This document shows, in pieces, positions 27,585 to 58,430 of a stretch of 64,000 nucleotides of DNA. The translations under genes and the position numbers were made by a program. The stretch is from a virus (lineage: Duplodnaviria > Caudoviricetes): IMG/VR virus record IMGVR_UViG_3300022752_000016. The stretch is one strand, 5' to 3'. Every line of letters begins with the position of its first letter. The stretch's first letter is position 1. A model generated the notes under the pieces. That model saw nothing but the letters and a program-made list of their open reading frames with translations, was not told the DNA's origin and did no database searches.

Positions 27585-29681
27585 ATGGACATTAAAGAAC
27601 TACACTCATTTAGATTAAGTGACGCAGTAAAATTTCAGGATAAACTTAACCCAAAATTATTCTTGGGAAACCGTTTAGATCCTGCTGTAAAAAATCAATT
27701 AATTACAATTGCTAAAGATTTTCTTACAGAATTAGGGATAGGTGATGTAAAAGTTAAAGATATAACAATATCAGGTAGCAATGCAGCATTTACTTATACA
27801 CCACATAGCGATTTAGACTTACACATAGTTGTTGATTATAATCAATTTTCCAATGATAGCGTTTACAAAGAATTGTTTAACGCTAAGAAAAATTTATACA
27901 ACGATAGTCATAACATTACAATACGTGGTATTCCAGTAGAAGTATATATGGAAGATAGCAATGAACCAGTCATTAGTGTTGGTGAATACAGTATACTAAA
28001 GGATAAATGGAATCAAATTCCAACTAAACGTAGAGCAAACTTTGATCAAACTGCCACTAAGGCGAAGTATGGTAAACTAAATGATTTTATACTAAGAGCA
28101 TTAAAAGAAAAAAGTAGCAAAAAGATAGCCAAAGCATTAAAAATAATTAAGCGTTACAGACAAGCAGGGTTAGATAAAGGTGGTGAGTTTAGTCCTGAAA
28201 ATTTAGCATACAAAGCTTTACGTAGTCAAAAAGCAATTGAAAAACTATATAAGTTGCGTGATGAATTACATAGTAAAGAATTAAGTATTGAAAACATGTA
28301 TCAGGAACAAAAGCTAAATCGATTCGATGAAGACATTCCAGTTCAAAAAGGACCAGCGCGGTTAAAAAGACAAAGTGAATTAGAAAAGACACAAGACGAA
28401 TTAGGATCAGGTTTTTTTGGTACAGTTTATGATGAACCAAAAAGTAAAACTGGTGTAGGCACTGCTAGAAAAGTTTCTACATTTGATAGAGATGAGATGA
28501 CTGCTGACGGGTATTATGCTTATATCAATAAGATTATTGATCTTAAAAATGAAACTAATAATCCATACTTACCACAAGTATATGATGCTAAAGTTGTAAA
28601 ACCAAAGTCAGTAGGAAGTGAGCCATACTTTGAATTAGAACTTGAAAAATTAAGTAAATGGGAAGATTTAAGTGGTAATCAATTACGAGCAATACTAGAA
28701 AAAATGCTTGATGAAAGTTTTGAAAATGAAAAGAAACTACAAGATGTTTTGAAATTTTTAGGGCATTCAGGTGCGTCAGATACGAGTGACGAATGGTTAA
28801 TGTATGTAATTTTATATTTTATTAGGCTTACAATTAAAAATCCAAACTTTAGTTTAATGGGTATGAAAATTCGTGACCCACAACTTCTTGAAGTCACTGA
28901 TATGTTAAGATATCTGTCTAAGTCAGGGTATGGTATGGACTTACATGATCAAAATATCATGGTAAGAAATAGTAAATATGGCCCACAATTAGTTATTACA
29001 GATCCTTTAAGCTTTGGTGAAACTAGTCAGATACGAAAATTTAAACAAGGCAATATGAAAATGGATGTAAGGGGTGTAACTATACCACCTAATTACATAA
29101 TTTATGACATACATGATAAAGATAGACCAGTATTGCGTGGCTATGGCAGTTACGAAGAAATCTACCAACAATTCATAGAATTAAAGAATAAAAAACCATA
29201 TAATGATTATGAAATAGCTCCAATGAATCAAAAAGCTTCGGATGAAATGGATGCGAAGCAAGCAAGTGTAAAAGCAAAGTATAAAGAAAAACCACCTGCA
29301 AATCCTAAATATCAGCTTAAACCAAAATATACTTATGCTGTTTATGATAAAGATAAAACAAGCAATATGCTAATTGGTTATGTTAATGCTAACCATGATT
29401 CTGAAGCATTGGGATTGGCAAGAAAAAAATTCCCCGATGTAAAAAATATTAATGTGTTGCCTGATTTACTTGGTGATCCAAATGATAAATTTGCTGGTAT
29501 GTTAGAAGAAGCATTGGGTGAAAGTGCCTCGGGATATATCCCAAGCAAAAAACAAGCTAATGACCCAAGATTTAAGACTGCCTTGACAGTAGACATAAAA
29601 CCCGATAGCATCCAAAAGAATGCCAAAGCTTTTGGGTTTAAAGTAAAAAGGTCTGGAATCCCACCCCTGCTAAGACCCTAA
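27585..29681 (+). CDS. Pol-beta-family nucleotidyltransferase fused to a protein-kinase-like domain
   Basis: ISGSNAAFTYTPHSDLDLH (GS..DxD); LGSGFFGTVY, RKV, DLHDQNIMV, VITDP kinase motifs. Confidence 0.75.
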   Translation: MDIKELHSFRLSDAVKFQDKLNPKLFLGNRLDPAVKNQLITIAKDFLTELGIGDVKVKDITISGSNAAFTYTPHSDLDLHIVVDYNQFSNDSVYKELFNAKKNLYNDSHNITIRGIPVEVYMEDSNEPVISVGEYSILKDKWNQIPTKRRANFDQTATKAKYGKLNDFILRALKEKSSKKIAKALKIIKRYRQAGLDKGGEFSPENLAYKALRSQKAIEKLYKLRDELHSKELSIENMYQEQKLNRFDEDIPVQKGPARLKRQSELEKTQDELGSGFFGTVYDEPKSKTGVGTARKVSTFDRDEMTADGYYAYINKIIDLKNETNNPYLPQVYDAKVVKPKSVGSEPYFELELEKLSKWEDLSGNQLRAILEKMLDESFENEKKLQDVLKFLGHSGASDTSDEWLMYVILYFIRLTIKNPNFSLMGMKIRDPQLLEVTDMLRYLSKSGYGMDLHDQNIMVRNSKYGPQLVITDPLSFGETSQIRKFKQGNMKMDVRGVTIPPNYIIYDIHDKDRPVLRGYGSYEEIYQQFIELKNKKPYNDYEIAPMNQKASDEMDAKQASVKAKYKEKPPANPKYQLKPKYTYAVYDKDKTSNMLIGYVNANHDSEALGLARKKFPDVKNINVLPDLLGDPNDKFAGMLEEALGESASGYIPSKKQANDPRFKTALTVDIKPDSIQKNAKAFGFKVKRSGIPPLLRP

Positions 29682-30148: not shown

Positions 30149-30158
30149 GGAGTTGTAT

Positions 30159-30377
30159 ATGGGATATAAGGTACTTGCCGATAAGTCTCAAATGGATGAA
30201 ATGCGACAAAAGTATGGACCACGCAAAGGTTTAGAAGGTCCATTTAACTTTTCGGGTAGAGTGTTGTATTATGACAACAAAGAAGGGTTGTACTACGATC
30301 CTAAAACGGACTTTTATGTTGAGCAATCAGAAATGGATCTAATCCATAATGGTTTAGTCCAAAAACTAATCAAATAA
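30159..30377 (+). CDS. Early hypothetical protein (YYDNKEGLYYDPKTDFY motif)
   Basis: SD AGGAG; internal YYD repeat. Confidence 0.7.
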   Translation: MGYKVLADKSQMDEMRQKYGPRKGLEGPFNFSGRVLYYDNKEGLYYDPKTDFYVEQSEMDLIHNGLVQKLIK

Positions 30378-38780: not shown

Positions 38781-39689
38781 ATGTCTGAGCAACAAGTTAT
38801 TAATTTGGGTACTTTATCAATTGAGGAAACTTTAAGCACTTCAAATGCTAATATTGTTTTGGCAAATATTAATGTTGGAACTTTACCTAATGATGGTTTA
38901 GGTGATCCATTAAGAATTGCATTTAGTAAAATCAACAATAATTTTAGTAATTTAATAAGTACGCTTGGTGGTAACCTAAGTAGTACAATAGAACTGACAC
39001 AAGTAGAGGATTTTAGAGAAACTACTAGTATAGAAAACAATTTATATATTAACCAACTCAGTATTTTTAATAATAACGTAAGCACTGTAACAAGCACTCC
39101 TTTACCCATAGTAAGTACTCCTATTAATTCTGCAAATCTTGCTACCCAAATAGGTCCGTTTGGAAATCAGTTGTATATTAATATTGGTAATACCCCAAAT
39201 GATGGACAGGGAGATCCCTTACGTGTTGCCTTTGGCAAAATCAATAATAATTTTAGTAATTTATTTTTTACTACAACTAATACCACATTAAGTTATACTG
39301 TTGGAGTATTGGATCAAATTATTTTTGAAGCAGATGCTAATAAATTTACACAGGCAGAATTTAAAATTCAAACTTCCGATAGTGAAGGACCCAATAGTCA
39401 AAATATAACTATATCTGCTCAAATGAAAAATAGTGGAACAAATGTTAGATGGACGGGATATGCTACAATATTTGATGGATCTCCGCTTACAAATTACAAT
39501 TTAGAAGTAATTGGAGGAAATGTAGTAATTATTGCTAAACCTATTGCAAATACTACAATGACACATTTTATTGCTAGCTCTATTACATGGCAAGGTGATC
39601 CTTTACCTGGATTAGACATTGAACTTGATGGATACATGAACTCAGTAATGTCTACACAAAATAATTTAAATATCACTACAGAAAATTAA
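38781..39689 (+). CDS. Virion structural protein with two T4 gp9/gp10-like motifs
   Basis: IN(V/I)G..PNDG.GDPLR.AF.KINNNFSNL occurs twice; late box GATAAATA at 38757. Confidence 0.7.
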   Translation: MSEQQVINLGTLSIEETLSTSNANIVLANINVGTLPNDGLGDPLRIAFSKINNNFSNLISTLGGNLSSTIELTQVEDFRETTSIENNLYINQLSIFNNNVSTVTSTPLPIVSTPINSANLATQIGPFGNQLYINIGNTPNDGQGDPLRVAFGKINNNFSNLFFTTTNTTLSYTVGVLDQIIFEADANKFTQAEFKIQTSDSEGPNSQNITISAQMKNSGTNVRWTGYATIFDGSPLTNYNLEVIGGNVVIIAKPIANTTMTHFIASSITWQGDPLPGLDIELDGYMNSVMSTQNNLNITTEN

Positions 39690-40090
39690 TGAGAGCAAAA
39701 GAATTTATTAAAGAACAAAAATTAAGTGATGTCCATGATGGATTGGATGTAGCTGCTAAAGCATTACCCAATACATTTGTTATTCCTGAATTAAAAAATC
39801 AAGACTTTTATGATTTGTACAGATTTGGTGTGGCGATAGCTGATGTTCGTGGTAATTCAGGTGATGTAAAAAATATTGACCCTTATAAACCAAAATTTCG
39901 TCCTGAAACAAGATGGGGTGAAAATCAAATTATAAGTAGTTTTGATCCTAATATAGGAAAAATTATTGACCAAGCACTTAAGAAAGTTAAAAAAACAGGA
40001 AAACGTGCAGTAAGTAGTCCAGGTAGTGATGAATTTGATGATACCTTAAAAAATAGTCCTATTAAACCTTTTAAAGGGTATAAACGATGA
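39689..40090 (+). CDS. Putative internal head protein (MRAKEFIKE leader)
   Basis: N-terminus resembles T4 capsid targeting sequence MKTYQEFIAE; C-terminus PIKPFKGYK. Confidence 0.55.
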   Translation: MRAKEFIKEQKLSDVHDGLDVAAKALPNTFVIPELKNQDFYDLYRFGVAIADVRGNSGDVKNIDPYKPKFRPETRWGENQIISSFDPNIGKIIDQALKKVKKTGKRAVSSPGSDEFDDTLKNSPIKPFKGYKR

Positions 40091-40464
40091 GAGCAAATGA
40101 GTTTATATCTGAGGCTAAAAAGAACGGAAAAATTAGAAAAAGTCATAGGTTTGCAACAAGAGGGTTACATAAGTTTAGAGATGAAACTTTAGCAGATAGA
40201 ATATATGAATTAAATAGAATTATGATGGCAGCTGCATCAACTGATGGCACATTTATGCCAGATATGAATCATGAAAGTTGGGCAGGAAGATATGATATCG
40301 CTGCCCCCTACACTAAACAAGAGCATGATATGTTAAAAATGGCTTATGCTGTAAACGGTACAGAATATAAAGATTTAAATAATGGCGATTTGCGTAGTCA
40401 AGAATTACCTGGGACAAATACAACAAGTATAGTAAAGCCATTTAAAGGCTACAAGAAAAAATAA
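40087..40464 (+). CDS. Putative internal head protein (MRANEFISE leader), paralogue
   Basis: Same leader type; C-terminus IVKPFKGYK. Confidence 0.55.
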   Translation: MRANEFISEAKKNGKIRKSHRFATRGLHKFRDETLADRIYELNRIMMAAASTDGTFMPDMNHESWAGRYDIAAPYTKQEHDMLKMAYAVNGTEYKDLNNGDLRSQELPGTNTTSIVKPFKGYKKK

Positions 40465-42198: not shown

Positions 42199-42240
42199 TA
42201 AAGATTGTTTAAATATTACAAGAGATTTATAAATAATTTT

Positions 42241-43794
42241 ATGAATAAGTCAGGATCAGTAACATTAATTAAAGATCCATATGTAAAAACTGTTTTTAAA
42301 ACACAACAAGAACTTGATGACTTTATCAAATGTTGTGATCCAAAAACTGGTTATTTGCATTTTATGGATAATTTCTTTTATATACAACATCCTACCAAAG
42401 GTAGCATGGTGTATCACCCATATCCATATCAAAAACGTTTAATTGAAACCTATCATAACTATCGTTTTAGTATATCATTGATGCCAAGACAAAGTGGTAA
42501 ATCTACCAGTGCAGCAGGGTATTTATTATGGTATGCAATGTTTGTACCAGATAGTACGATATTGATTGCTGCACACAAATACACAGGTGCTCAAGAAATT
42601 ATGCAACGTATTCGTTATGCTTATGAAAATTGTCCTATGCATATAAAAGCTGGTGTTACAACATATAATAAAGGTAGTCTAGATTTTGAGAATGGTAGTA
42701 GAATTGTAAGTGCAACTACAACAGAAAATACAGGTCGTGGTATGTCTATATCGTTACTGTACTTAGACGAATTTGCATTCGTTAGACCAACCATTGCTGA
42801 ATTGTTTTGGACATCAATAACACCAACATTAGCGACTGGTGGTAAAGCTATTATTACCAGCACACCAAATAGTGATGAAGATCAATTTGCATTAATTTGG
42901 AAACAGGCTACCAAAACAGAGGATGAATATGGAAATCAAACAGAATTAGGTAAGAATGGTTTCAGAGCTTATCGTGCTAATTGGTGGGAACAACCAGGAC
43001 GTGATGAAGCTTGGGCAAAAGAAATCAGAGCACAACTAGGTGAAGATCGTTTTAGGCGTGAGATTGGTTGTGAATTTATTATTGCAGAAGAAACTTTGAT
43101 CGCACCTACTACATTGGTAGATATGGAAGGCATTGAACCTGTACAACGTATGGGACAAGTTCGTTGGTATAAGAAACCAGAGAAAGGTAATATATATGTT
43201 GTTGGATTAGATCCTAGTTTAGGTACAGGAAGTGATCCTGCAGCTATACAAATATACGAAGCTAACACTACCATACAAATAGGTGAGTGGAAACATAATC
43301 AAACAGATATCCCAAATCAAGTTAAATTATTAGCACAAATAAACAAATATATTGAAGAATGCACTAATGAACCAAATAATATATATTACAGTATTGAAAA
43401 TAATACGATAGGAGAAGCCGCATTAATTTCATTAGCAGAATACAGTGAAAGTAATATACCTGGTATATTTTTAAGTGAGCATGGGAAGAAAAGAAAAGGA
43501 TTTAATACAACTCATAAGGTAAAATTAGCAGCGTGTGCTAAATTTAAAACCTTAATTGAAAGTAGAAAAATGAAAGTAAATAGCCGTAGTTTGGTAAGTG
43601 AATTAAAAACTTTTGTAGCAACAGATGGAAGTTATAGAGCGAAAATAGGCGAAACAGATGATTTGGTTATGGCAAGTTTATTAGTAATTAGAATGTTACA
43701 ACATTTAAGTGATTATCATGTAGATTTAGAGACACAAATTCGTGACCATGACGAATACATTCCACCATTGCCATTCTTTGCAGTACTGAACTAG
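42241..43794 (+). CDS. terL: Terminase large subunit (T4 gp17-like)
   Basis: LMPRQSGKST Walker A, LYLDEFAF Walker B, VGLDPS and DDLVMA nuclease acids; start moved to ATG after TATAAATA (42228). Confidence 0.93.
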   Translation: MNKSGSVTLIKDPYVKTVFKTQQELDDFIKCCDPKTGYLHFMDNFFYIQHPTKGSMVYHPYPYQKRLIETYHNYRFSISLMPRQSGKSTSAAGYLLWYAMFVPDSTILIAAHKYTGAQEIMQRIRYAYENCPMHIKAGVTTYNKGSLDFENGSRIVSATTTENTGRGMSISLLYLDEFAFVRPTIAELFWTSITPTLATGGKAIITSTPNSDEDQFALIWKQATKTEDEYGNQTELGKNGFRAYRANWWEQPGRDEAWAKEIRAQLGEDRFRREIGCEFIIAEETLIAPTTLVDMEGIEPVQRMGQVRWYKKPEKGNIYVVGLDPSLGTGSDPAAIQIYEANTTIQIGEWKHNQTDIPNQVKLLAQINKYIEECTNEPNNIYYSIENNTIGEAALISLAEYSESNIPGIFLSEHGKKRKGFNTTHKVKLAACAKFKTLIESRKMKVNSRSLVSELKTFVATDGSYRAKIGETDDLVMASLLVIRMLQHLSDYHVDLETQIRDHDEYIPPLPFFAVLN

Positions 43795-43812: not shown

Positions 43813-46629
43813 ATGCCACTAGACAAAAATTCTTACAATCTTAAATTATATAACCTGTTAAAGACACGAGGTTATCGTCCTATTCCATTAGATAGTAAAG
43901 GCGAACGTTCAGAAGCACCACAGGAAGCAGATGTTTTCAAGTTTACTTTTTCAAAAGCTGATGAAAAAGTAGGCACAATGTATGCAACTGTAGAAGAAGG
44001 TGACATAGTCCTTTATTATGATGAAGATGAAGTTAGTAAATCAAGCGATGCTAATACATCAGGAACAGAGTTTACTGATAGTTTTACAGGATTGATAAGA
44101 CATTTAAAGCATTGGGCAATGACAAGACAATTAGGTTTTAGAACTGAACCTGATGACAAATTAGGTAGTGATATGGCGCAAAGGGAATATATGAAAAAGA
44201 AAGAAAACATTAGCGAGGGATATTATCCCATGGGTAAATCAGCAAGTTACAATGATGCTGTACCTACAGTAAAAATTATTTTACAACATACTCGCCAAAT
44301 ACAAGAGGGTGAACAACGTTTTCGCCATGTAAGTAAGATATTTTTAGAAAACACTTTAGGTGAAAGAATTCTTGCACCAACTATTCGTCCTGGCATTGCC
44401 CAAGTATATGCCAGACATATTGCTGAAGGTGGAGTTCCTAATGATGAGCGTTGGAATCATATTAAAAGCCTTTGTGAAGATTATAGTAAAATGGCAGGTT
44501 TTGTTCGTGCTGTAAAAAATAATCAATTTAATGAATCAGCACAACAATTAGTTAATGAAGGTGTTAATCATTATCAAAGTTTGCGTGAAACCTTAGGAAG
44601 AATGCGTGGTCATCGTGGGTATAACGCTTATTTTGAAAGTTGGACGCCAACATTAATGGAAGAGGAAAATTCTGATAATACATTAAATGAATTATTTGTC
44701 CAAGAAACATTAGATCCTAGAATTGAAAGTGTTCTTCCAATATTAAGTAAATTAAGAAAAACAGTTGGTGAAATGAAAGAAGTTAATGAATTAGCGGAAT
44801 GGGCTGAAGAATTAACTGAAGCGCCTGGTGCCGAAACATTAGCACATAATGAAAAAACAGAAAAGTCACGTTTGGATGCATTTGACCTAGAGGAAAGTGA
44901 TGATGCAGTAAAAGCAGGTCAAGTAGCCCGTGATAAAATTAAGAAGCCTGCGTTTATGCGTAAAGCAGCAGGCGAGAGGCCAGCCACATTAGGTGATGTT
45001 GAAAGATCACAGCAGCATCGTAGTAGCCAAGCAATGGTTGGTCAAAAAGGTGAAGAAGTTGAAGAAAGTGGATTACAAGCATATCTTGGTAATAAGAAGT
45101 ATGGCAAAGATGGTATGGATGCTTTACGCAAAGCAGGGCGTGATGGTGCAAGCAAAGAAAAAATGGCTAAGATTCGTGCCAAGTATGACAAATTAGATGA
45201 AGAAGGTGTGGCGGAAGCAGCCAAATGGCGTGATCCAAAGTATAAAGATAAACTCTATACACAAGAACCCGGTGATAGTGATGACTATGACAATATTGGC
45301 TATGGATACGATTTTCCAGAACGGCCAGAAAATGACCCAGGTCAGAAACGTAGAATGGGTGGTGTAGGCAGTGAATTTGATCGCAATGACCCTTTGGTCA
45401 AGGGGCAGGGCATTGGTCGTAGCGGCATCAAGCACAGCCTCAATCTTGCTGGCAAGAGAAAAGGTCTGCCGTCAAGAGATCAAATCACCAGCCTTAAAGG
45501 CAGTATCAAAGATGCACATGGAAAACATCGCAAGCCCAATTTGCCAGAGCAAGGTGTGGCGGAAGGCTGGAATGACCATTTAGATGATCCTGATGATTAT
45601 GAAGGACATTTGGAAAGATTGCGTGATTTAGCAGACCTAAAGCGTATGCAGGATAGAGAAAAAGAATCTACGGATAAAGAAGATAATAGTAAAAAAAAAG
45701 TAGATGAGGTTAATCCACATTATTACGATAGTGATTTAGATTATTATGATGCTGTTAGGCGTAGTAAATTACCTAAAATGCCTCGTCCTGGAGATGAGGA
45801 CTTTGAAAAATACGATACCTTTGATAAACCATATGATGACTATGACGACGATGATAAAGATTTAAAGGAAGGTGTAACAAAAAGGTCATTATCAGAAATG
45901 GATTCTCAAGGTTATAAAGGATACAGGGACAATGAAGATAAAGGTAAAGGTCCAGAGAAAGTAGTCAAGCCAGCTAAGGCAAAAGATGTTGCTAAAGATG
46001 CTGAAAAAGAATTGACCAAGGTAATGGATAAAGCACACAAGAAAGATGTGGCAGAAGGCAGTGGCTCAAAATACAAAGTTAAATCTATTGGTAAAGATAG
46101 TAAAGGTGATTATTATATAAGTCCAGTCACTGGTAAAAAAGTATATAAGTCAGGAGTTAATAAAGGTGATCACGAAAATCCTAAAACAGGAGAAATTAAA
46201 AAAGGTGTGGCGGAAGGCTCGCTGCGTGAATTCGCACCCGATGATGGGGGTGACGGTGGCGATGATGGGTTCAGTGAAGAAACACTAAAGCGATTTGCGG
46301 CACAATGGTACAACGGTGATGAAGATCCCAGGATCGAACGTGCCCTAGCAGCAGCTGGTTGGGAGATCGGACAGGATGAGGGCTACGACGATGAGCCCGG
46401 TGTGTTCGTGGTACAGGTTGGTGATGTCAACGGCAATAGCTATCTAAGTTGGCCAGCACACGAATTGAAGCAAGGTGTCTCGGAAGACCTAGATGCTAAT
46501 CAAAAGCGTGTAGGTCAATTGGGCCCAACTGAAAAAGTCAAAAATAATAATATTGGTAAATTGGTTGGAGCAAGTGAATCAATACAACATGATCCATTAA
46601 AAGATATTTTAAGATTATCGGGTAAATAA
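43813..46629 (+). CDS. 938-aa putative head/core protein: conserved-looking N-terminal half plus modular C-terminal polyprotein
   Basis: Follows terL behind late box ACTAAATA; C-terminal half is segmented by (G/D)V(A/S)E and other [LIV]xE sites. Confidence 0.65.
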   Translation: MPLDKNSYNLKLYNLLKTRGYRPIPLDSKGERSEAPQEADVFKFTFSKADEKVGTMYATVEEGDIVLYYDEDEVSKSSDANTSGTEFTDSFTGLIRHLKHWAMTRQLGFRTEPDDKLGSDMAQREYMKKKENISEGYYPMGKSASYNDAVPTVKIILQHTRQIQEGEQRFRHVSKIFLENTLGERILAPTIRPGIAQVYARHIAEGGVPNDERWNHIKSLCEDYSKMAGFVRAVKNNQFNESAQQLVNEGVNHYQSLRETLGRMRGHRGYNAYFESWTPTLMEEENSDNTLNELFVQETLDPRIESVLPILSKLRKTVGEMKEVNELAEWAEELTEAPGAETLAHNEKTEKSRLDAFDLEESDDAVKAGQVARDKIKKPAFMRKAAGERPATLGDVERSQQHRSSQAMVGQKGEEVEESGLQAYLGNKKYGKDGMDALRKAGRDGASKEKMAKIRAKYDKLDEEGVAEAAKWRDPKYKDKLYTQEPGDSDDYDNIGYGYDFPERPENDPGQKRRMGGVGSEFDRNDPLVKGQGIGRSGIKHSLNLAGKRKGLPSRDQITSLKGSIKDAHGKHRKPNLPEQGVAEGWNDHLDDPDDYEGHLERLRDLADLKRMQDREKESTDKEDNSKKKVDEVNPHYYDSDLDYYDAVRRSKLPKMPRPGDEDFEKYDTFDKPYDDYDDDDKDLKEGVTKRSLSEMDSQGYKGYRDNEDKGKGPEKVVKPAKAKDVAKDAEKELTKVMDKAHKKDVAEGSGSKYKVKSIGKDSKGDYYISPVTGKKVYKSGVNKGDHENPKTGEIKKGVAEGSLREFAPDDGGDGGDDGFSEETLKRFAAQWYNGDEDPRIERALAAAGWEIGQDEGYDDEPGVFVVQVGDVNGNSYLSWPAHELKQGVSEDLDANQKRVGQLGPTEKVKNNNIGKLVGASESIQHDPLKDILRLSGK
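45203..46486 (+). repeat. Dispersed motif AAGGTGTGGCGGAAG (encodes GVAE), 3 perfect and 2 variant copies
   Basis: Perfect at 45203, 45551, 46202; variants GATGTGGCAGAAG (46045) and GGTGTCTCGGAAG (46474). Confidence 0.9.
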
Positions 46630-46782: not shown

Positions 46783-47799
46783 ATGGCAAGTTTAGCAGAT
46801 ATCCGCGCAAGAATCGCAGCGCAAGAAAACAAAACACAAAAAGGTCAAATCACGACCGACAACGCAGTATATCCTCACTGGAATATGGAAGAAGGTACAG
46901 TTGCTACTATTCGTTTCCTACCAGATGCAGATTCAAACAATACGTTCTTTTGGGTAGAACGTCAAATCATCAAGCTTCCCTTCAATGGGCTTAAGGGTGA
47001 TCCTAATGTAAAACAAATTACTGTACAAGTACCTTGTGCTGAGATGTATGGCGATACTTGCCCAGTACTAACTGAAGTTCGTCCTTGGTATAAAGATGAA
47101 ACACTAAAAGAAATGGCAAATAAATATTGGAAAAAGCGTAGTTATCTATTCCAAGCTTTTGTTCGTCAAAATCCAATTGGTGATGATAAGACACCAGCTA
47201 ATCCAATTCGTAGACTTGTGATAAGTCCACAGATTTTCACAATTATCAAATCAAGTTTGATGGATCCTGAAATGGAAGAATTACCCACTGATTATGTACG
47301 TGGGTTGGATTTTAATATTAAGAAAACTAGTAAAGGTGGTTATGCTGATTATTCAACAAGTAACTGGGCACGTAAAGAAAGTCCATTGACTGAAGCAGAG
47401 CAAGCAGCAATTGAAGCACATGGATTATTTAATCTAGCAGATTTCTTACCAAAGCGTCCTAATGAAGCAGAATTGAATATTATTAAAGAAATGTTTGAAG
47501 CTTCGGTAGATGGGCAACCTTATGACAATGATCGTTGGGGTTCGTATTATCGTCCCTTTGGAGTTGATGCTCCGCAACATCAGGTAGATAGTGATAGCGA
47601 AACTGTTACAGAAAAGAAAGTATCAGTTTCAGTTTCAAAGCCTGCTGTTTCGAAGCCTGATGTTAAAGAAGAAACTGCTCCATGGGAAGATGAACCAGCT
47701 GAGGCAAGTCAACCTGTTAATATTCCAAAGTCAACATCAAGTGATAAGGCACAAGATATTTTAGCAATGATTCGTGCCCGTCAAAACAAGACAGCCTAA
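46783..47799 (+). CDS. ssb: Single-stranded DNA-binding protein (T4 gp32 family)
   Basis: IRFLPD, VPC.E..G..CPV, YWKKRSY, LDFNIKK..KGGYADYSTS.W. Confidence 0.9.
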   Translation: MASLADIRARIAAQENKTQKGQITTDNAVYPHWNMEEGTVATIRFLPDADSNNTFFWVERQIIKLPFNGLKGDPNVKQITVQVPCAEMYGDTCPVLTEVRPWYKDETLKEMANKYWKKRSYLFQAFVRQNPIGDDKTPANPIRRLVISPQIFTIIKSSLMDPEMEELPTDYVRGLDFNIKKTSKGGYADYSTSNWARKESPLTEAEQAAIEAHGLFNLADFLPKRPNEAELNIIKEMFEASVDGQPYDNDRWGSYYRPFGVDAPQHQVDSDSETVTEKKVSVSVSKPAVSKPDVKEETAPWEDEPAEASQPVNIPKSTSSDKAQDILAMIRARQNKTA

Positions 47800-48093: not shown

Positions 48094-49161
48094 TTGGGGA
48101 AACCGTTCGATGTTAGTAAATTTAGAAAAGATATTACCAAGTCCATTGAGGGACTTAGTATCGGGTTTAACGATCCAACAGATTGGATTAGTACAGGAAA
48201 TCACGCACTTAATTATCTCATTAGTGGTGATTTTAATAAAGGCGTACCTCTTGGTAAAGTTACTGTCTTTGCCGGAGAGTCAGGATCAGGAAAAAGTTAT
48301 ATCTGTGCAGGAAATCTCGTCCGTCACGCACAACAACAAGGGATCTTTGTCGTATTGGTCGATACTGAAAATGCGCTTGATGAAGATTGGTTACATAACT
48401 TGGGAGTTGATACGTCAGAAGAAAAACTATTAAAACTTAATATGGCAATGATTGATGATGTTGCCAAAACTATTAGCGAGTTTATGAAAGGATATCGCAC
48501 TATTCCTAGTGAAGATCGTCCTAAAGTACTTTTTATTATTGATAGCTTAGGAATGTTACTTACTCCTACTGATGTTAATCAATTTGAAGGCGGTGATTTA
48601 AAAGGTGATATGGGTCGTAAACCAAAAGCACTAACCGCACTAGTACGTAATTGTGTAAATATGTTTGGTAGTCACAATGTTGGATTGGTAGCTACAAATC
48701 ATACCTACGCAAGTCAGGATATGTTTGATCCTGACGATAAAATCTCAGGTGGGCAAGGCTTTATCTATGCAAGTTCAATTGTTGTAGCAATGAAAAAATT
48801 GAAACTTAAAGAAGATGAAGATGGTAATAAAACAAGTGAAGTCCTTGGTATTCGTAGTGCTTGTAAAGTAATGAAAACACGTTATGCTAAACCTTTTGAA
48901 AGTGTACAAGTAAAGATTCCATATAGTACAGGAATGAATCCATATAGTGGGTTGTTAGATTTATTTGAAAAATCAGGGCTGCTTGTAAAAGAAGGCAATC
49001 GTTTAAGCTACACTACGTTAGATGGTGAAGTTATCAAACATTTCCGTAAAGGTTGGGAAACTAATACTGATAATTGTTTAGATACGGTTATGAGTGAGTA
49101 TAGTAAAAGAAACGAAAATAAACTAAGTAATGTAACAACTGAGGAGGAAGTTACAGAATGA
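48094..49161 (+). CDS. uvsX: RecA/UvsX recombinase
   Basis: GESGSGKS Walker A, DTENA, IIDSLGML, TNHTY, SGGQG; TTG start with SD AAGGAG. Confidence 0.92.
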   Translation: MGKPFDVSKFRKDITKSIEGLSIGFNDPTDWISTGNHALNYLISGDFNKGVPLGKVTVFAGESGSGKSYICAGNLVRHAQQQGIFVVLVDTENALDEDWLHNLGVDTSEEKLLKLNMAMIDDVAKTISEFMKGYRTIPSEDRPKVLFIIDSLGMLLTPTDVNQFEGGDLKGDMGRKPKALTALVRNCVNMFGSHNVGLVATNHTYASQDMFDPDDKISGGQGFIYASSIVVAMKKLKLKEDEDGNKTSEVLGIRSACKVMKTRYAKPFESVQVKIPYSTGMNPYSGLLDLFEKSGLLVKEGNRLSYTTLDGEVIKHFRKGWETNTDNCLDTVMSEYSKRNENKLSNVTTEEEVTE

Positions 49162-52951: not shown

Positions 52952-55168
52952 ATGCGTATGTTACAACAAGTAGTACAAGAAGAAAACACTTCTAACAATG
53001 AGCATATTAATGACATTGTAAATCAAATATTACAAGATCCCAAACGCCGAACTTTTTTAAAAACAGGTTCGGCGTTTTTAACTGCTGCCACAGGCGCAAC
53101 TTTAGCAGGTTGTGCTAGTGGAGATGACACCTTAACTGTGTCACATCTCAATTTTCCTGCTGTAGCTAAAAATATAGCAGATAAAATTACATTACCACCA
53201 GGTTATCAATATTCAATAGTACATGCTACCGGAGATAGACTGACTAGTAGTGTAGGTGCTTATACCAATAAAGGAACTGAAACTGATGATTGGTCTAACA
53301 GAGTAGGTGACCATCATGATGGTGTAGAATTATTTCACCTAGATAGTGCAGGTAAACGTACAAATCAAATGACTGATCGTGCTTTATTAGTTATGAATCA
53401 TGAAAGTTCAGCAGACGCACACTTCTTTCACCCAAATGGACAAACCAGTAATGGAACTACCGGCAAAAAGTACGACCAATTTGGAAGTTGGGATTTAGGG
53501 GTTCGTCCTGGACTTGAAGCATTAAAAGAAATAAATCATCACGGCGTTAGTGTTGTTGAAATTAATAAGAGTAGCAATGGTTGGTCTTATAAATTAGATA
53601 GCGGGTTTAATAGACGTATTACTCCTCAAACAGTAATGAAAATTGCTGGACCTGTTAATGAACTTAGTAACATTAAAGCATTATTAGCAACCAAATATGA
53701 TCCAACAGGTGCTACAAGTCGTGGTACATTAAACAATTGTGGTACAGGCATTACACCATGGGGTACTTTCTTAACATGCGAAGAAAATTGGGCTACCTAT
53801 TTCGCTATGCCTAAAGGTAGCGTTGCTCCAGATGCACGTATGGCGCAGAGCCGTGCTAGATATGGTGTTCGTAACGCAGCTATTGCCGATACTGCCACAA
53901 CAAGTAATACACAAGGATGGCACACTGTAACCGACATGCCCGATACCGCACAAAGATTTAGTCGTTGGGATGTAAGTGTAAAGGGAGCTACAGACAAAGA
54001 TGATTTTCGTAATGAACCACATACGTTTGGTTACATCGTAGAAATTGATCCAACTAACCCAACAAGTCAACCAGTAAAGCGTATTGCTTTAGGTCGTACA
54101 GCACATGAAGCAGCAGTATATGGAAAATTAGTTGCAGGTCAACCAGTAACTTTTTACATGGGATGTGACAGTCGAAATGAGTATATCTATAAGTGGGTAA
54201 GTAATCAACCATGGAATCCAGCCGATGCTAACGGTGGTTTGGCAGCAGGTGACAAATATTTAAATGATGGCAAACTGTACGCAGCTAAATTTAATAATGA
54301 TGGAACTGGTGTATGGTTAGAATTAAGCATTACAAATCCTCTTATTGCAGGATATTCAACTTTTGTATTTAAAAACCAAGCTGAAGTTTATGTTTTTACT
54401 AGACTTGCTGCTGACGCAGTTGGTGCCACCAAAATGGATCGCCCAGAATGGGGTGCTGTAAATCCTGCTAATGGTGAAGTGTATTTTGCTTTAACAAATA
54501 ATAGTTCTGCAAATCGTACGCCTTCTACAGTTAATGCAGCTAACCCACGTAGTTATGCTGATCCAGATGGCAAAAAAGGTTCAGGCAATCCTAATGGGCA
54601 CATTATTCGTTGGCGTGAAGAAACTAGTGGATTTAAGTGGGATATTTTCTTATTTGGTTCAGAAGAGGATAATTCTCAAAGTAATGTCAGCAAACTGACT
54701 GCCAATAATAGTTTTAGTAGCCCAGATGGATTATGGTTTAGTCGTGCTACTGGCTTATGCTGGATTCAAACTGACGATGGTGCATATACTGATGAAGTTC
54801 ATAATCAATTACTTGTTGCTATCCCTGGTAAAGTTGGCGATGGTCAGGCAATTACAGTCAATAACAGTCTAAGTGGTGCTACTGGCACACAAGCAACATT
54901 TGTTGGTGCTGAATTAGGGGAAACTAAATTACGTAGATTCATGACTGGTCCTGCTGGTTGCGAAATTACTGGTATTACTGAATCAGCAGATGGTCGTGCT
55001 ATCTTTGTAAATGTTCAGCATCCTGGCGAAGATACTTCGGCAGCATTTTGGACAGGAGGAGCGCCACAAAGTCAATGGCCAGGTAATGCTAATTATGGGA
55101 TAACTGGTCGTCCTCGCTCAGCCACAATTTGTATTACAAGGGTTGACGGAGGCCTAATAGGCGTATAA
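52952..55168 (+). CDS. phoX: PhoX alkaline phosphatase (Tat lipoprotein)
   Basis: KRRTFLK Tat motif, LAGC lipobox, GDHHDG, TPWGTFLTCEEN, KMDRPEW, SPDGL, GCEITG, NVQHPGE. Confidence 0.93.
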   Translation: MRMLQQVVQEENTSNNEHINDIVNQILQDPKRRTFLKTGSAFLTAATGATLAGCASGDDTLTVSHLNFPAVAKNIADKITLPPGYQYSIVHATGDRLTSSVGAYTNKGTETDDWSNRVGDHHDGVELFHLDSAGKRTNQMTDRALLVMNHESSADAHFFHPNGQTSNGTTGKKYDQFGSWDLGVRPGLEALKEINHHGVSVVEINKSSNGWSYKLDSGFNRRITPQTVMKIAGPVNELSNIKALLATKYDPTGATSRGTLNNCGTGITPWGTFLTCEENWATYFAMPKGSVAPDARMAQSRARYGVRNAAIADTATTSNTQGWHTVTDMPDTAQRFSRWDVSVKGATDKDDFRNEPHTFGYIVEIDPTNPTSQPVKRIALGRTAHEAAVYGKLVAGQPVTFYMGCDSRNEYIYKWVSNQPWNPADANGGLAAGDKYLNDGKLYAAKFNNDGTGVWLELSITNPLIAGYSTFVFKNQAEVYVFTRLAADAVGATKMDRPEWGAVNPANGEVYFALTNNSSANRTPSTVNAANPRSYADPDGKKGSGNPNGHIIRWREETSGFKWDIFLFGSEEDNSQSNVSKLTANNSFSSPDGLWFSRATGLCWIQTDDGAYTDEVHNQLLVAIPGKVGDGQAITVNNSLSGATGTQATFVGAELGETKLRRFMTGPAGCEITGITESADGRAIFVNVQHPGEDTSAAFWTGGAPQSQWPGNANYGITGRPRSATICITRVDGGLIGV

Positions 55169-55196
55169 AATATCAATCACACACAAAGGAAAAACA

Positions 55197-56201
55197 ATGA
55201 AAAAATTTATATTGGCTCTTGCGACCATATTTTTCGCAATTTCAGCACAGGCACAAATTACAGGTGCAGGTGCTACATTCCCTTATCCGATCTATGCTAA
55301 ATGGGCAGAAGCCTATCAAAAGCAAACAAGCGTCGGTCTTAATTATCAAAGCATTGGTAGTTCGGGGGGAATCCGTCAAATTAATGCCAAGACTGTAACA
55401 TTTGGAGCAACAGATGCGCCAGTTAAAGGTGAAGACCTTGATAAGAACGGTCAAGTTCAATTTCCTGTTATCATTGGCGGTACTGTGCCCGTTATTAATC
55501 TTGACGGTTTTAAGCCAAGTGAACTTCGCATTACAGGTGCTGTCTTGGCAGAAGTTTTTATGGGAAACATTGTTAAATGGAATGATCCGAAATTATCACA
55601 ATTAAACCCAGGTAAAAATTTACCTGATCTTAATATAACGGTAGTGCATCGTGCTGATGGTTCTGGTACAACATTTAATTTTACTGATTATCTAACTGAA
55701 GTAAGTCCTGCTTGGAAGGACAAGGTTGGTAAAGGTGCAGCAGTTAAATGGCCTGCTAATAGTTCTGTTGGTGGAAAAGGTAACGAAGGTGTTGCAGCTA
55801 ATGTTAATAGAGTTAAAGGTGCAATTGGATATGTTGAATATGCTTATGTTAAAAAGAATAACATGAATTATATGAAACTACAAAACAAAGCAGGTAACTT
55901 TGTTGACCCTGATGATACAACATTTGCTGCCGCAGCAGCAGGTGCAGATTGGTTCTCAGTTCCAGGAATGGGATTGAGTATTGTAAATCAAGGCGGCAAA
56001 GATACTTGGCCCATAACAACAGCTAGCTTTATTATAATGCATAAAGATCCTGCTGATAAAAAGGCTAGCCAAGAAGTCATCAAGTTCTTTGACTGGGCAT
56101 TTAGGAATGGTGCCAAAATGAGTGCGGATCTTGATTATGTTCATTTACCAGAGAAATTACAGAATGAAATACGTACAAAAGTATGGACTCAAATTAAGTA
56201 A
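55197..56201 (+). CDS. pstS: Phosphate ABC transporter substrate-binding protein
   Basis: GAGATFPYP, YQSIGSSGG, HRADGSGTT, GKGNEGV, IGYVEY. Confidence 0.95.
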   Translation: MKKFILALATIFFAISAQAQITGAGATFPYPIYAKWAEAYQKQTSVGLNYQSIGSSGGIRQINAKTVTFGATDAPVKGEDLDKNGQVQFPVIIGGTVPVINLDGFKPSELRITGAVLAEVFMGNIVKWNDPKLSQLNPGKNLPDLNITVVHRADGSGTTFNFTDYLTEVSPAWKDKVGKGAAVKWPANSSVGGKGNEGVAANVNRVKGAIGYVEYAYVKKNNMNYMKLQNKAGNFVDPDDTTFAAAAAGADWFSVPGMGLSIVNQGGKDTWPITTASFIIMHKDPADKKASQEVIKFFDWAFRNGAKMSADLDYVHLPEKLQNEIRTKVWTQIK

Positions 56202-56294
56202 TGTAATAATACTGTAAACTAATCAAAAGTTAAATTTTGTAAATAGTTATAGAGAATCACAAATTCTCTATAACCCACATCAAGGAGTCACAAA

Positions 56295-56519
56295 ATGAAA
56301 CTAGAAATGAGAGCTTGGGATTTAGACGTAAAATTAGAATTACAGGATGATGATGCAGTAGACCAATTACAAGTTTTGGAAGTTGTTAAAAATTTATTAG
56401 ACACACTTTCACAATTTGAAAAAGTCAATGTAGTAATTAAACAAATTGAAGAAACAACAGAAGAATTAGATAATAATTCTGATAACGTTGAAGCAATTAC
56501 TCATACAACAGGTTACTAA
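56295..56519 (+). CDS. Acidic hypothetical protein
   Basis: SD AAGGAG; 74 aa. Confidence 0.65.
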   Translation: MKLEMRAWDLDVKLELQDDDAVDQLQVLEVVKNLLDTLSQFEKVNVVIKQIEETTEELDNNSDNVEAITHTTGY

Positions 56520-56535
56520 AAGGTCCCCCAATGAA

Positions 56536-57306
56536 ATGGTTTATAATGCTATCTTTATATCAGATGTACACTTGGGCACAAAAGGATGTAAAGCCGAAGA
56601 ATTAATTAATTTTTTGAAAAACAACACCGCTTCAAAGTTATATCTTATAGGTGATATATTAGACGGCTGGAAAATACAACAAAATAAATGGGTCTGGAAA
56701 CAGACCCATTCCAATGTAATCCGTAGAATTTTAGGTCATGCTAAAAATGGTACAGAAGTTTTCTATGCTATAGGAAATCATGATGAATTTATACGTCCTT
56801 TACTTCCATATAAGATAAGTTTTGGCAAAATTAAACTTGCTAATCAGTTTACACATAATGGTATAGATGGGAAGAAATATTTAGTTGTTCACGGAGATTT
56901 ATTTGATGGAATAACAAGGCTCGCTCCTTGGATTAGTTTTTTGGGGGATAGAGCCTATGACATGCTTCTTTCACTTAATACCACATTTAATCGTATTCGC
57001 CATCGTTTTGGGTTCGGCTATTGGAGTCTTAGCAAATATCTTAAGCACAGAGTCAAACGGGCTATGGATTTTATGTTTAGATTTGAGAATAATATGGCTG
57101 ATTATTGTATTAAGCGTGGGTATGATGGAGTTATATGTGGTCATATACATTATGCCGAAATTAAAACAATAAAGGGTATAACATATATGAATGATGGTGA
57201 TTGGGTAGAAAGTTGTAGCGCACTAGTAGAAAATGTCAATGGAAGTTGGGAAATTATATATTGGACAAAAAAGCAAGATGTGGATATTGTTCCTAGTGGT
57301 AGTTAA
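56536..57306 (+). CDS. plcP: LpxH-like metallophosphoesterase, PlcP-type phospholipase C
   Basis: FISDVHLG, IGDILDGW, GNHDE, HGD, CGHIH, YMNDGDWVESCSAL; context with a GT4 gene after pstS; start moved to ATG 56536. Confidence 0.75.
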   Translation: MVYNAIFISDVHLGTKGCKAEELINFLKNNTASKLYLIGDILDGWKIQQNKWVWKQTHSNVIRRILGHAKNGTEVFYAIGNHDEFIRPLLPYKISFGKIKLANQFTHNGIDGKKYLVVHGDLFDGITRLAPWISFLGDRAYDMLLSLNTTFNRIRHRFGFGYWSLSKYLKHRVKRAMDFMFRFENNMADYCIKRGYDGVICGHIHYAEIKTIKGITYMNDGDWVESCSALVENVNGSWEIIYWTKKQDVDIVPSGS

Positions 57307-57463
57307 TACATTTGATACGAATGATGTACCTGGTAGAATCCAATTACAGTTTAAGGATCAACAAAGTTGTGAATTCGCACTGGCTAATATGACAAGTTAT
57401 GTTAAATTTCCTTGGTTTAAAGTAGAGGGTAAATGTGAAAAAAATATTAATAATAACAGATAA
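57278..57463 (+). CDS. Small exported/membrane hypothetical protein
   Basis: MWILFLVVV start, two Cys; between plcP and GT4. Confidence 0.55.
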   Translation: MWILFLVVVNTFDTNDVPGRIQLQFKDQQSCEFALANMTSYVKFPWFKVEGKCEKNINNNR

Positions 57464-58430
57464 TTTACAGGATCAAATAAATGGTGTGGTTACCACTTAC
57501 AAAAATCTTGAAGCGTGTGCGGTTCGTGACAACTATAACATTGTTTATATTACTCCCGATGAGTTCCGCCACTTTGATTGCCCTATCTATAACGAAGTCA
57601 AGATTGCCTTTCCGAGGAAAATGGGCGAGAAGATTGAGGAGATATCTCCACATCATATCCACATCGCCACAGAAGGTCCTGTGGGTCTGTGGGCTAGAGC
57701 ATATCTTACAAAACATAATTATAATTACAATACTGCTTATCATACTAAATTTCCTGAAGGATTACATACCTTGGTTGGACTTCCTGAGTCTATTACTTGG
57801 CGCTATATAAAATGGTTTCATAAACATACAGGAAAAGTTCTTACAACCACTAATTCTATGGTTGAACAATTACAACAAAAAGGATTAAAAAATCTTGTAC
57901 CATGGACTAGAGGTGTTGATAGAGAAATATTTTCTTCTAAATTACGAACAAAAACAGCGGAAAAACTTAATCTTGTCTGTGTAAGTCGAATTAGTAAAGA
58001 AAAAAACTTAGACGATTTTTGTAGTATCGATTATTTTCATGCACATAAAATAATGGTAGGTGATGGTCCTTATCGTAGGGAATTAGAAAAGAAATATCCT
58101 AACGTAGAATTTGTAGGATTTAAAACAGGAGTAGAATTGGCTACATATTTTGCAAACGCCGATGTATTTGTTTTTCCAAGTCGTTGGGAAACATTTGGTA
58201 TCGTTATGATTGAGGCTATGGCGTGTGGTACACCTGTTGCGGCATATCCCTGTCAAGGACCACTGGATGTTGTAGATCATGGGATAACAGGGTTCTTACG
58301 AGATAATCTTAAACAGGCTATTACAGAATGTTTAACATTAGATAGGTATACAGTTGAAAAGCATAGTTTAAAATACAGCTGGGATAAAGCTTGGGAAATT
58401 TTTAAAAATAATTTAATACCATTAAAGTAA
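57435..58430 (+). CDS. agt: GT4 glycosyltransferase, Agt-like diacylglycerol glycosyltransferase
   Basis: IITD...QINGVVTT, HIATEGPVG, TAYHTKFPE, VSRISKEKN, ETFGIVMIEAMACG. Confidence 0.75.
   Translation: MKKILIITDNLQDQINGVVTTYKNLEACAVRDNYNIVYITPDEFRHFDCPIYNEVKIAFPRKMGEKIEEISPHHIHIATEGPVGLWARAYLTKHNYNYNTAYHTKFPEGLHTLVGLPESITWRYIKWFHKHTGKVLTTTNSMVEQLQQKGLKNLVPWTRGVDREIFSSKLRTKTAEKLNLVCVSRISKEKNLDDFCSIDYFHAHKIMVGDGPYRRELEKKYPNVEFVGFKTGVELATYFANADVFVFPSRWETFGIVMIEAMACGTPVAAYPCQGPLDVVDHGITGFLRDNLKQAITECLTLDRYTVEKHSLKYSWDKAWEIFKNNLIPLK

Follow-up and report, generated by a model that had tools for sequence, protein, structure and literature searches.

We analyzed a window of 64,000 nucleotides, the whole stretch of viral DNA considered here (record IMGVR_UViG_3300022752_000016; Duplodnaviria, Caudoviricetes), and focused on the gene that follows terL. 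This open reading frame (ORF) begins 19 nt past the terL stop codon, the position after terL that a first-pass annotation had assigned to it, and encodes a 938-residue protein in which unrelated peptide segments are separated by short joints of the type [GD]V[AS]E. This observation is confirmed by our analysis. We consider it probable that the product is a capsid-loaded, protease-cut virion polyprotein with a cargo that is shuffled in frame at a short connector sequence. The phage itself is an aquatic jumbo phage that has not been cultured and is a relative of the Pseudomonas phage PA5oct.

The protein consists of a 336-residue conserved N-terminal domain followed by nine segments of 25, 57, 50, 116, 111, 53, 53, 90 and 47 residues, with [LIVM]-x-E as the closing motif; the nine boundaries of this protein are all [LV]-x-E (Table 1). 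Segment net charges span +6 to -15. As judged from sequence conservation, the predicted polyprotein is made up of the N-terminal domain, three short segments that are conserved, an array of hypervariable modules and a conserved terminal segment with a scaffold-like tail. Its more than 2000 homologues have the N-terminal half in common and differ in length (550-1139 residues) and in their tails, and both protein ends are conserved among homologues.

Each of the five sites that the first-pass annotation had listed, EGVAE, QGVAE, KDVAE, KGVAE and QGVSE, was found. Residues 331-938 contain five [GD]V[AS]E motifs against 0.084 expected, a number reached by none of 20,000 composition-preserving shuffles. 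The generic motif [LIVM]xE exceeded its expected count only slightly (14 against 8.2, P=0.024), and the remaining sites were for this reason judged by conservation. The conservation set comprised 158 distinct homologues, in which we scored the residues preceding five recognisable conserved segments. Breakpoints derived from ungapped BLAST end-points were too noisy, and were replaced by these segment-anchored counts and by metagenome contig breakpoints.

With the five conserved segments combined, [LIVM]-x-E was present at 445 of 449 homologous boundaries, compared with a base rate of about 3% of positions. It preceded APGAETL, at the LTE336 boundary, in 110/110 cases, SGLQAY, at the VEE418 boundary, in 76/76, MDSEGY or MDKSQ, at the LSE695 boundary, in 58/59, and DLDANQKR of the terminal segment in 96/99. 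The segment ending in AFDL-x-E, at the LEE361 boundary, conformed in 105/105, with Asp, Glu, Ala, Gly or Ser at P2. Across these boundaries P1 was Glu in all but one case, P3 was Leu, Ile, Val or Met in nearly all, and more than ten different residues occurred at P2. An unbiased count of 4-mers over the 158 homologues ranked GVAE/VAEG first, with 63 distinct flanking contexts against at most 28 for the next best. Among the additional [LIV]xE sites proposed in the first-pass annotation, LTE336, LEE361, VEE418 and LSE695 thus stand as conserved boundaries, whereas VDE632 and LKE686 were not demonstrated to be boundaries. The protease-like character that it had ascribed to the joints agrees with the fixed P1, hydrophobic P3 and free P2 found across homologues, as well as with the presence of a gp21-type protease in the lineage (see below).

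The conserved segment of residues 419-468 illustrates how the joints vary. Its family has 45 members of 48-50 residues that align end to end, and its last four residues read GVAE, GMEE, GVEE, DVEE, VVTE, SVAE, GIEE or GLAE in different homologues. Nearly all of them satisfy [LIVM]xE; one group has EEGEFAG instead.

The joints are conserved not only as peptides. At variable-module boundaries the connector is conserved at the nucleotide level as (C/G)AA GGT GTG GCG GAA G(G/A)C, over 12-17 nt. Exactly GGTGTGGCGGAA encodes 21 of the 25 distinct GVAE sites in homologues; the Val codon is GTG in 23/25 (background 7%), the Ala codon GCG in 22/25 (background 5%), and the codon after GVAE is GGC in 12/25 (background 17%). 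This bias was replicated at unselected sites in other ORFs, where 47/70 carried the exact 12-mer and 64/70 differed from it by at most one mismatch. The 137-kb viral record containing the window, estimated to be 40% complete, holds three copies of the GGTGTGGCGGAA 12-mer against 0.0016 expected, only in the polyprotein gene and all in one frame. Decayed joints (GATGTGGCGGAA, GGTATGGCGGAA and GGTGTGGAGGAA) lie 1-3 nt off the connector and keep hydrophobic-x-Glu. Composition changes at the same places: the GC content at third codon positions (GC3) is 0.478 in module 802-891 and 0.15 in both flanking segments, with steps that coincide with the joints.

Contigs from four lake or freshwater metagenomes of four studies were mapped onto the gene, and all 22 contig breakpoints listed lie no more than 5 nt from a connector (J1-J5). 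They are located at 45204 (three runs) and 45220 for J1, at 45548, 45565 and 45568 for J2, at 46051 and 46060 for J3, at 46201 to 46218 (three runs) for J4, and at 46490 for J5. At J3, where the window itself carries a divergent connector, a contig from run X7 has the canonical GTGTGGCGGAAGGC ahead of the module. Community depth of module 749-801 was 15-30 times that of the gene backbone, and that of module 469-584 reached 7-10 times the backbone at most (runs X4 and X7). One contig joins J2 straight to module 749-801, skipping the intervening modules, and another carries module 749-801 in tandem repeat. Logan contigs are built from 31-letter words, so that a connector of at most 17 nt is insufficient by itself to create the observed joins. 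The GVAE joint is a mosaic breakpoint in natural populations. Taken together, sequence identity at the DNA level, the steps in composition and the breakpoints in populations indicate that the connector is also the point at which modules are exchanged, and recombination between short identical connectors would be the simplest mechanism for this exchange.

When 76 homologues were cut at their joints, we obtained 235 segments in 102 families, 86 of which were singletons, and the multi-member families align end to end. The query's listed variable segments each fell into a family of their own, in line with the earlier description of a string of unrelated modules. Some homologues contain module duplications (three copies in P0034), and module order differs between proteins: in P0133, module 749-801 follows 802-891, the reverse of the query. 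Module 585-695 recurs in one homologue (P0002) and partly in another (P0034), and module 696-748 occupies different positions in other homologues.

Module 802-891 occurs end to end in 411 representative clusters, in proteins of 99-1601 residues and at any position, frequently behind T4 CTS-like leaders (CTS, capsid-targeting sequence) and with GVAE on its flanks. Among the best 150 of these proteins, G[VM]xE joints are present in 107, which together have 275 such joints, GVAE accounting for 174, and 30 are headed by a leader. Structure prediction had been proposed for each module; run on this one with AF2, it gave a compact alpha/beta mini-domain with a core predicted local distance difference test (pLDDT) score of about 85, preceded by an 18-residue disordered acidic lead-in. 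Searches with this fold returned no match in PDB or AFDB and no useful lead in the Atlas. A free-standing 74-residue ORF of the window (30153..30377) shares 58% identity over 41 residues (E 6e-12) with a module lying between connectors in homologue P0013, which hints that modules may pass from stand-alone genes to polyproteins or back.

The connector also links modules elsewhere. In complete relatives the exact 12-mer occurs outside the terL-linked gene, with five copies in G001 and one in G002, and the reversed-pattern control gave 0. The ORFs bearing it encode a 503-residue protein with five joints, a 714-residue protein with a nucleotidyltransferase-like head and a 1004-residue protein. Clusters of GVAE-linked polyprotein genes are found at G001:C1:181000-197000 (L097) and G002:C1:258000-268000 (L098), genomically distant from the terL-linked gene. 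In one of their products the modules are joined to an N-terminal domain of cytidylyltransferase/NMNAT-like type, and CTS-like leaders, namely MRANEFLIE, MRLVEFVTE, MRFTEIITE and MNFVELFE, are found nearby. The 17-mer CAAGGTGTGGCGGAAGG was present in at least 120 viral contig stretches. Among the matches listed, 102 of 103 occurrences lie in an open frame and read QGVAE, and the 82 ORFs concerned have 1-9 joints each, one ORF belonging to the polyprotein family and 81 lying outside it. Many of the ORFs linked by the connector begin with leaders of the T4 capsid-targeting type. By sequence, the terL-linked gene is one of many GVAE-linked polyprotein genes in these phages.

A candidate enzyme for cutting the joints is found in the lineage. 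In phage T4, gp21 cuts after L/I-X-E, divides core proteins into several fragments and removes 10-19-residue capsid-targeting leaders from internal proteins (PMC9026906); the T4 CTS is MKTYQEFIAE (PMC8442874). We tested five related, complete or near-complete genomes in which the homologous gene is present (PA5oct, Phosso, G001, G002 and G003). All five encode a gp21-type protease (PF03420, Peptidase_S77, above cut-off) and a gp23-type major capsid protein, and in relatives the head genes run, much as in T4, from the portal through small core proteins, the protease and the scaffold to the capsid. The capsid proteins of the relatives retain L-A/V/M-E immediately before the conserved mature N-terminus. 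MAFFT does not superpose this motif on the LTE65 cut site of T4 gp23, and it is thus a conserved analogue rather than an aligned homologue.

The N-terminal domain has a virion-associated homologue. PA5oct gp278, a homologue of this domain named 'virion structural protein', is annotated as detected in the virion by electrospray ionization tandem mass spectrometry (ESI-MS/MS). In tblastn it matches residues 60-316 with 27% identity and E-values of 1e-11 to 4e-11, and the gene order terL, polyprotein-type gene, gp32, uvsX is the same in PA5oct and Phosso.

Leaders and C-terminal tails were compared as well. The window contains two tandem paralogous small ORFs with CTS-like leaders (Table 1), both of which terminate in KPFKGYK(R/K) and have no PHROG match. 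Their orthologues in G001, a complete relative, carry these leaders too, and CTS-like leaders head several genes there. We regard the two products as candidate internal, capsid-packaged proteins that may depend on the same putative protease system. At the other end, C-termini in the polyprotein family (...DILRLSGK, ...AILRIIRK, ...DIKRLAGLK) resemble those of the relatives' gp22-like scaffold proteins (...IDIKRLAGL, ...ELRRLAGIK and ...ELRRLAGIEK; loci L092, L093, L094, L084 and L083). The relatives' prohead proteases are loosely alike (...VMRLIKDLKIK), and other polyproteins end in ...KKLAGLGPL. The shared amphipathic tail may be a common prohead-targeting peptide. This style of C-terminal tail is the sole trait that the polyprotein shares with gp22-type scaffolds, and a tail like RLAG was also sought in T4, where gp22 ends otherwise.

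Based on these results, we propose the following model. The N-terminal domain, the scaffold-like tail or both would bring the polyprotein into the prohead, where a protease of the T4 gp21 type would cleave behind the Glu of each joint and release about ten pieces. Like the internal proteins of T4, some of these would stay associated with the DNA and reach the host cell. Through recombination at the identical connectors of 12-17 nt, modules could be swapped, duplicated or lost while the reading frame is preserved, both between co-infecting phages and between paralogous polyprotein genes, leading to a fast turnover of the cargo. The role of the joints as putative cut sites is suggested by the motif and its conservation, and injection of the pieces may follow by likeness to T4 internal proteins. 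As a speculation, basic pieces could bind DNA and very acidic pieces could mimic it. The earlier interpretation as head peptides released by a protease is in this way partly supported.

Several results weigh against this model. Neither the protease gene nor the capsid gene was detected in the phage's own 137-kb genome, although such an absence is uninformative in a fragment with an estimated completeness of 40%. PA5oct gp278 is devoid of a GVAE array and the Phosso homologue has scattered [LIV]xE sites only, so that the virion detection of gp278 is uninformative about the array. The N-terminus of the protein, MPLDKNSYNLKLY, has no CTS-like leader of 10-19 residues. No module had a recognised function or fold relative in Pfam, PHROG or structure searches, and no cultured phage in the phage collection carries either module 802-891 or the tail of residues 585-938. 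Finally, given the conservation at the DNA level, part of the constancy of the motif is not driven by the peptide.

This last point is what an uncut, multidomain 'polyvalent' virion protein would lead one to expect. Here the connector would be only a recombination joint and flexible linker. The protein would be packaged and work as a single chain, or a later processing step would be due to an agent other than the prohead protease. The connector DNA is conserved beyond the needs of the peptide, packaged polyvalent proteins that remain unprocessed exist, such as the N4 virion RNA polymerase (PMC5512222), and one distant structural relative in BFVD carries the annotation 'large polyvalent protein-associated domain'. 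Yet decayed joints (GMEE, DVEE, VVTE, LNE, ITE and others) keep a hydrophobic P3, Glu at P1 and a free P2, as do nearly all the boundaries scored above, and a linker alone would not be so constrained. Boundaries that never carry the DNA connector (LTE, VEE, LxE) obey the same rule, and Pfam revealed no polyvalent-protein domain. Because the [LIVM]xE rule is kept where the DNA motif has decayed or was never present, we favor a protease site over a plain linker, and consider the uncut protein unlikely.

We likewise give little chance to an accessory role in the scaffold or core, in which the prohead protease would chop up the protein for expulsion, as happens to T4 gp22, gp67 and gp68, and the modules would be fast-evolving filler with no role after injection. 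The many cut-like sites, several highly charged, low-complexity segments and the scaffold-like C-terminal tail would suit such a protein, and T4 core proteins are indeed cut into multiple fragments (PMC9026906). However, the relatives carry a separate gp22-like scaffold gene of 363-368 residues between the protease and capsid genes. At least one module, the mini-domain of residues 802-891, is well conserved and folded and recurs in many different proteins, and one module has a homologue in a free-standing gene. Moreover, modules recur behind CTS-like leaders, which in T4 are the mark of retained internal proteins.

A third explanation concerns the nucleic acid itself: the 12-17-nt sequence could act at the RNA level, through pausing at rare codons or as a site for an RNA-binding or -cleaving factor, with mosaicism as a by-product. 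The rare GTG and GCG codons located exactly at domain boundaries, and an AGGTG core that is Shine-Dalgarno-like, would fit this possibility, which we nevertheless regard as very improbable. No start codon lies at the distance needed for internal initiation, and the breakpoints, depth steps and GC3 steps coincide with the motif while module order and gene context vary, which implies repeated recombination at or beside the motif. That the recurrence is due to chance, a low-complexity artefact or an assembly chimera can be practically dismissed despite the weak [LIVM]xE enrichment in a single protein, given the motif and 12-mer counts reported above, the recurrence of the pattern across hundreds of homologues, the identical 938-residue protein on four contigs, and the presence of at least 87% of the gene's sampled DNA words in five aquatic metagenome runs of three studies besides the likely source sample. 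The aquatic metagenomes in which most of the gene's DNA recurs include lake, freshwater and other samples from several studies, and this recurrence indicates a genuine aquatic phage sequence.

How does the proposed capsid-loaded, protease-cut polyprotein compare with known systems? Prohead-protease processing, capsid-targeting leaders and polyvalent proteins have already been described (PMC9026906, PMC5512222). The T4 internal proteins (IPI, IPII, IPIII and Alt) resemble the present system in having a gp21-family protease in the lineage and a hydrophobic-x-Glu cut motif. In both, the cargo consists of small proteins that evolve fast and are frequently basic or acidic, and the repertoire is hypervariable between related phages. 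The T4 leader also has counterparts here, since neighbouring or related genes begin with MRAKEFIKE, MRANEFISE or MKIRDILRE. T4 internal proteins, however, have one gene each and are cut once, after a leader of 10-19 residues, whereas here up to about ten pieces are predicted per ORF, a 336-residue conserved N-terminal domain replaces the leader, the joints are nucleotide-conserved, and the system is known from sequence.

Polyvalent proteins of phages and conjugative elements consist of 2-15 domains, and some of them are packaged unprocessed (Iyer et al. 2017, PMC5512222). They are similar to our protein in joining unrelated domains in one chain, in their mosaicism, in their packaging or virion gene neighbours and in their proposed co-delivery with DNA. 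In contrast, they have recognisable enzymatic and large polyvalent protein-associated (LPD) domains, and any processing is performed by a zincin-like peptidase domain of their own (PMC5512222). The protein studied here has modules of 25-120 residues with no Pfam match and uniform, DNA-conserved separators of the prohead-protease type. It shares with the polyvalent class the mosaic multi-domain layout beside packaging genes, while the characteristic domains of that class (LPDs, MPTase, ART, ParB-like) were not found in it. The closest cultured counterparts, PA5oct gp278 (YP_010678936.1; 496 residues) and the Phosso protein (976 residues), occupy the same position and have a homologous N-terminal domain (23-27% identity over about 260 residues), and they differ in lacking the cassette array, as described above.

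Giant phages package and eject large numbers of proteins (PMC5694885, PMC9026906). Their head and ejection proteins, the substrates of phiKZ gp175 and SPN3US gp245, are likewise cut by a Glu-specific prohead protease, with multiple cuts per substrate. There, however, the motif is A/S/G-x-E, the cuts mostly trim long propeptides, and neither an array of interchangeable modules nor a DNA-level connector is present. Short conserved DNA at mosaic boundaries is also a feature of the mobile regulatory cassettes and boundary sequences of T4-type and lambdoid phages, where it is intergenic and whole units are exchanged. The connector described here differs from these in lying within the reading frame, always in the same frame, and in encoding a functional-looking peptide. 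In literature searches for the connector peptide and for phage polyproteins cut by a prohead protease we found no description of such a system. Three of its features are without a published description that we could find: polyproteins of interchangeable mini-modules, uniform connectors of the prohead-protease type, and the conservation of the connector as an in-frame DNA word.

These features raise a broader possibility, which we advance tentatively. The connector could be both recombination joint and prohead-protease cut site, so that any captured module would automatically be expressed, packaged, freed and delivered, forming a combinatorial cassette system and a population-wide library of injected effectors. 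If this holds, a library of host-takeover or anti-defense factors would be common to many polyprotein genes and phage lineages, and injected proteins would be diversified by in-frame cassette swaps within one gene, with the joint ensuring release by the head protease; T4 differs in dedicating one gene to each internal protein. It would also be a case of recombination guided by short homology inside a coding frame. In practice, the connector, as the 12-17-nt word or as the peptide QGVAEG, serves as a search handle that retrieves hundreds of uncharacterised mini-proteins from aquatic viromes. These are possibly delivered from capsids, and they provide a ready list for screening against bacterial defense systems. 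The connector could also help to package a set of proteins, expressed from a single construct, in T4-like capsids.

Table 1 Features of the polyprotein gene and its neighbourhood, in window coordinates.
Feature	Position	Strand	Residues	Remarks
Two tandem paralogous small ORFs	39689..40464	+	133 and 125 aa	Leaders MRAKEFIKE and MRANEFISE
terL	42205..43794	+		Pfam Terminase_6N, Terminase_6C; phrog_36964
Predicted polyprotein ORF (P0001)	43813..46629	+	938 aa	
N-terminal domain	43813..44820	+	1-336	Ends LTE336; >2000 homologues
Short conserved segment APGAETL...AFDLEE	44821..44895	+	337-361	Ends LEE361
Segment	44896..45066	+	362-418	Ends VEE418
Conserved segment SGLQAY...KYDKLDEEGVAE	45067..45216	+	419-468	Clustering family 0
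Connector J1 GGTGTGGCGGAA	45205..45216	+	465-468	G-V-A-E; EGVAE
Variable module, basic, Gly/Pro-rich	45217..45564	+	469-584	GC3 0.39; singleton family
Connector J2 GGTGTGGCGGAA	45553..45564	+	581-584	QGVAE
Variable module, acidic	45565..45897	+	585-695	Net charge -15; ends LSE695
Lys-rich module MDSQGY...KAHKKDVAE	45898..46056	+	696-748	
Connector J3 GATGTGGCAGAA	46045..46056	+	745-748	D-V-A-E; KDVAE; 2 changes from canonical 12-mer
Variable module GSGSKYKVKSIG..., basic	46057..46215	+	749-801	53 aa
Connector J4 GGTGTGGCGGAA	46204..46215	+	798-801	KGVAE
Variable module, acidic	46216..46485	+	802-891	GC 0.54, GC3 0.48
Connector J5 GGTGTCTCGGAA	46474..46485	+	888-891	G-V-S-E; QGVSE
Conserved terminal segment DLDANQKRVGQLGP...	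46486..46626	+	892-938	Amphipathic C-terminal tail ...DILRLSGK
gp32-like single-strand DNA-binding protein	46783..47799			3' of polyprotein gene
UvsX	48094..49161			3' of gp32-like gene

Whole-protein scans of the polyprotein matched neither Pfam (E <= 0.1) nor PHROG families (E <= 0.01). An AF2 model of residues 1-470 was mediocre (pLDDT 63.7). The fold of the N-terminal domain was searched with Foldseek against PDB, VIA-align wide and the ESM Atlas; KA1-like, GNAT-like and helical resemblances were weak (Z < 6, TM < 0.5), and we claim no fold. A zincin-like HxxE peptidase motif in this domain (H202, E205) was ruled out, as E205 is Gln in PA5oct.

The nearest cultured relatives of the phage are the Pseudomonas jumbo phage PA5oct and the Sinorhizobium phage Phosso, with 48.6% TerL identity to the latter. 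The late promoter box TATAAATA was about as frequent in the window as chance predicts (19 matches, 18.4 expected). Upstream of the polyprotein gene lies a near-match alone, CTAAATAA, and we claim no promoter. The terL gene is listed as starting at TTG 42205, and a TATAAATA box is located inside this ORF at 42228-42235; the true start may for this reason be ATG 42241.

Other genes of the window were also noted. A 1942-residue ORF at 19728-25556 contains tandem repeats of about 66 residues, with units beginning MGDVEVIPEHEKWVEVQ... at about 20607, 20808, 21006 and 21204. An auxiliary block at 52952-58430 encodes a PstS-like phosphate-binding protein (55197..56201), a metallophosphoesterase (56488..57306) and a glycosyltransferase (57435..58430), and is consistent with a phosphate-limited aquatic host. 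Finally, a 698-residue protein (27585-29681) weakly matches PHROG families of phage protein kinases, among them that of the T7-type kinases, which inhibit host transcription.

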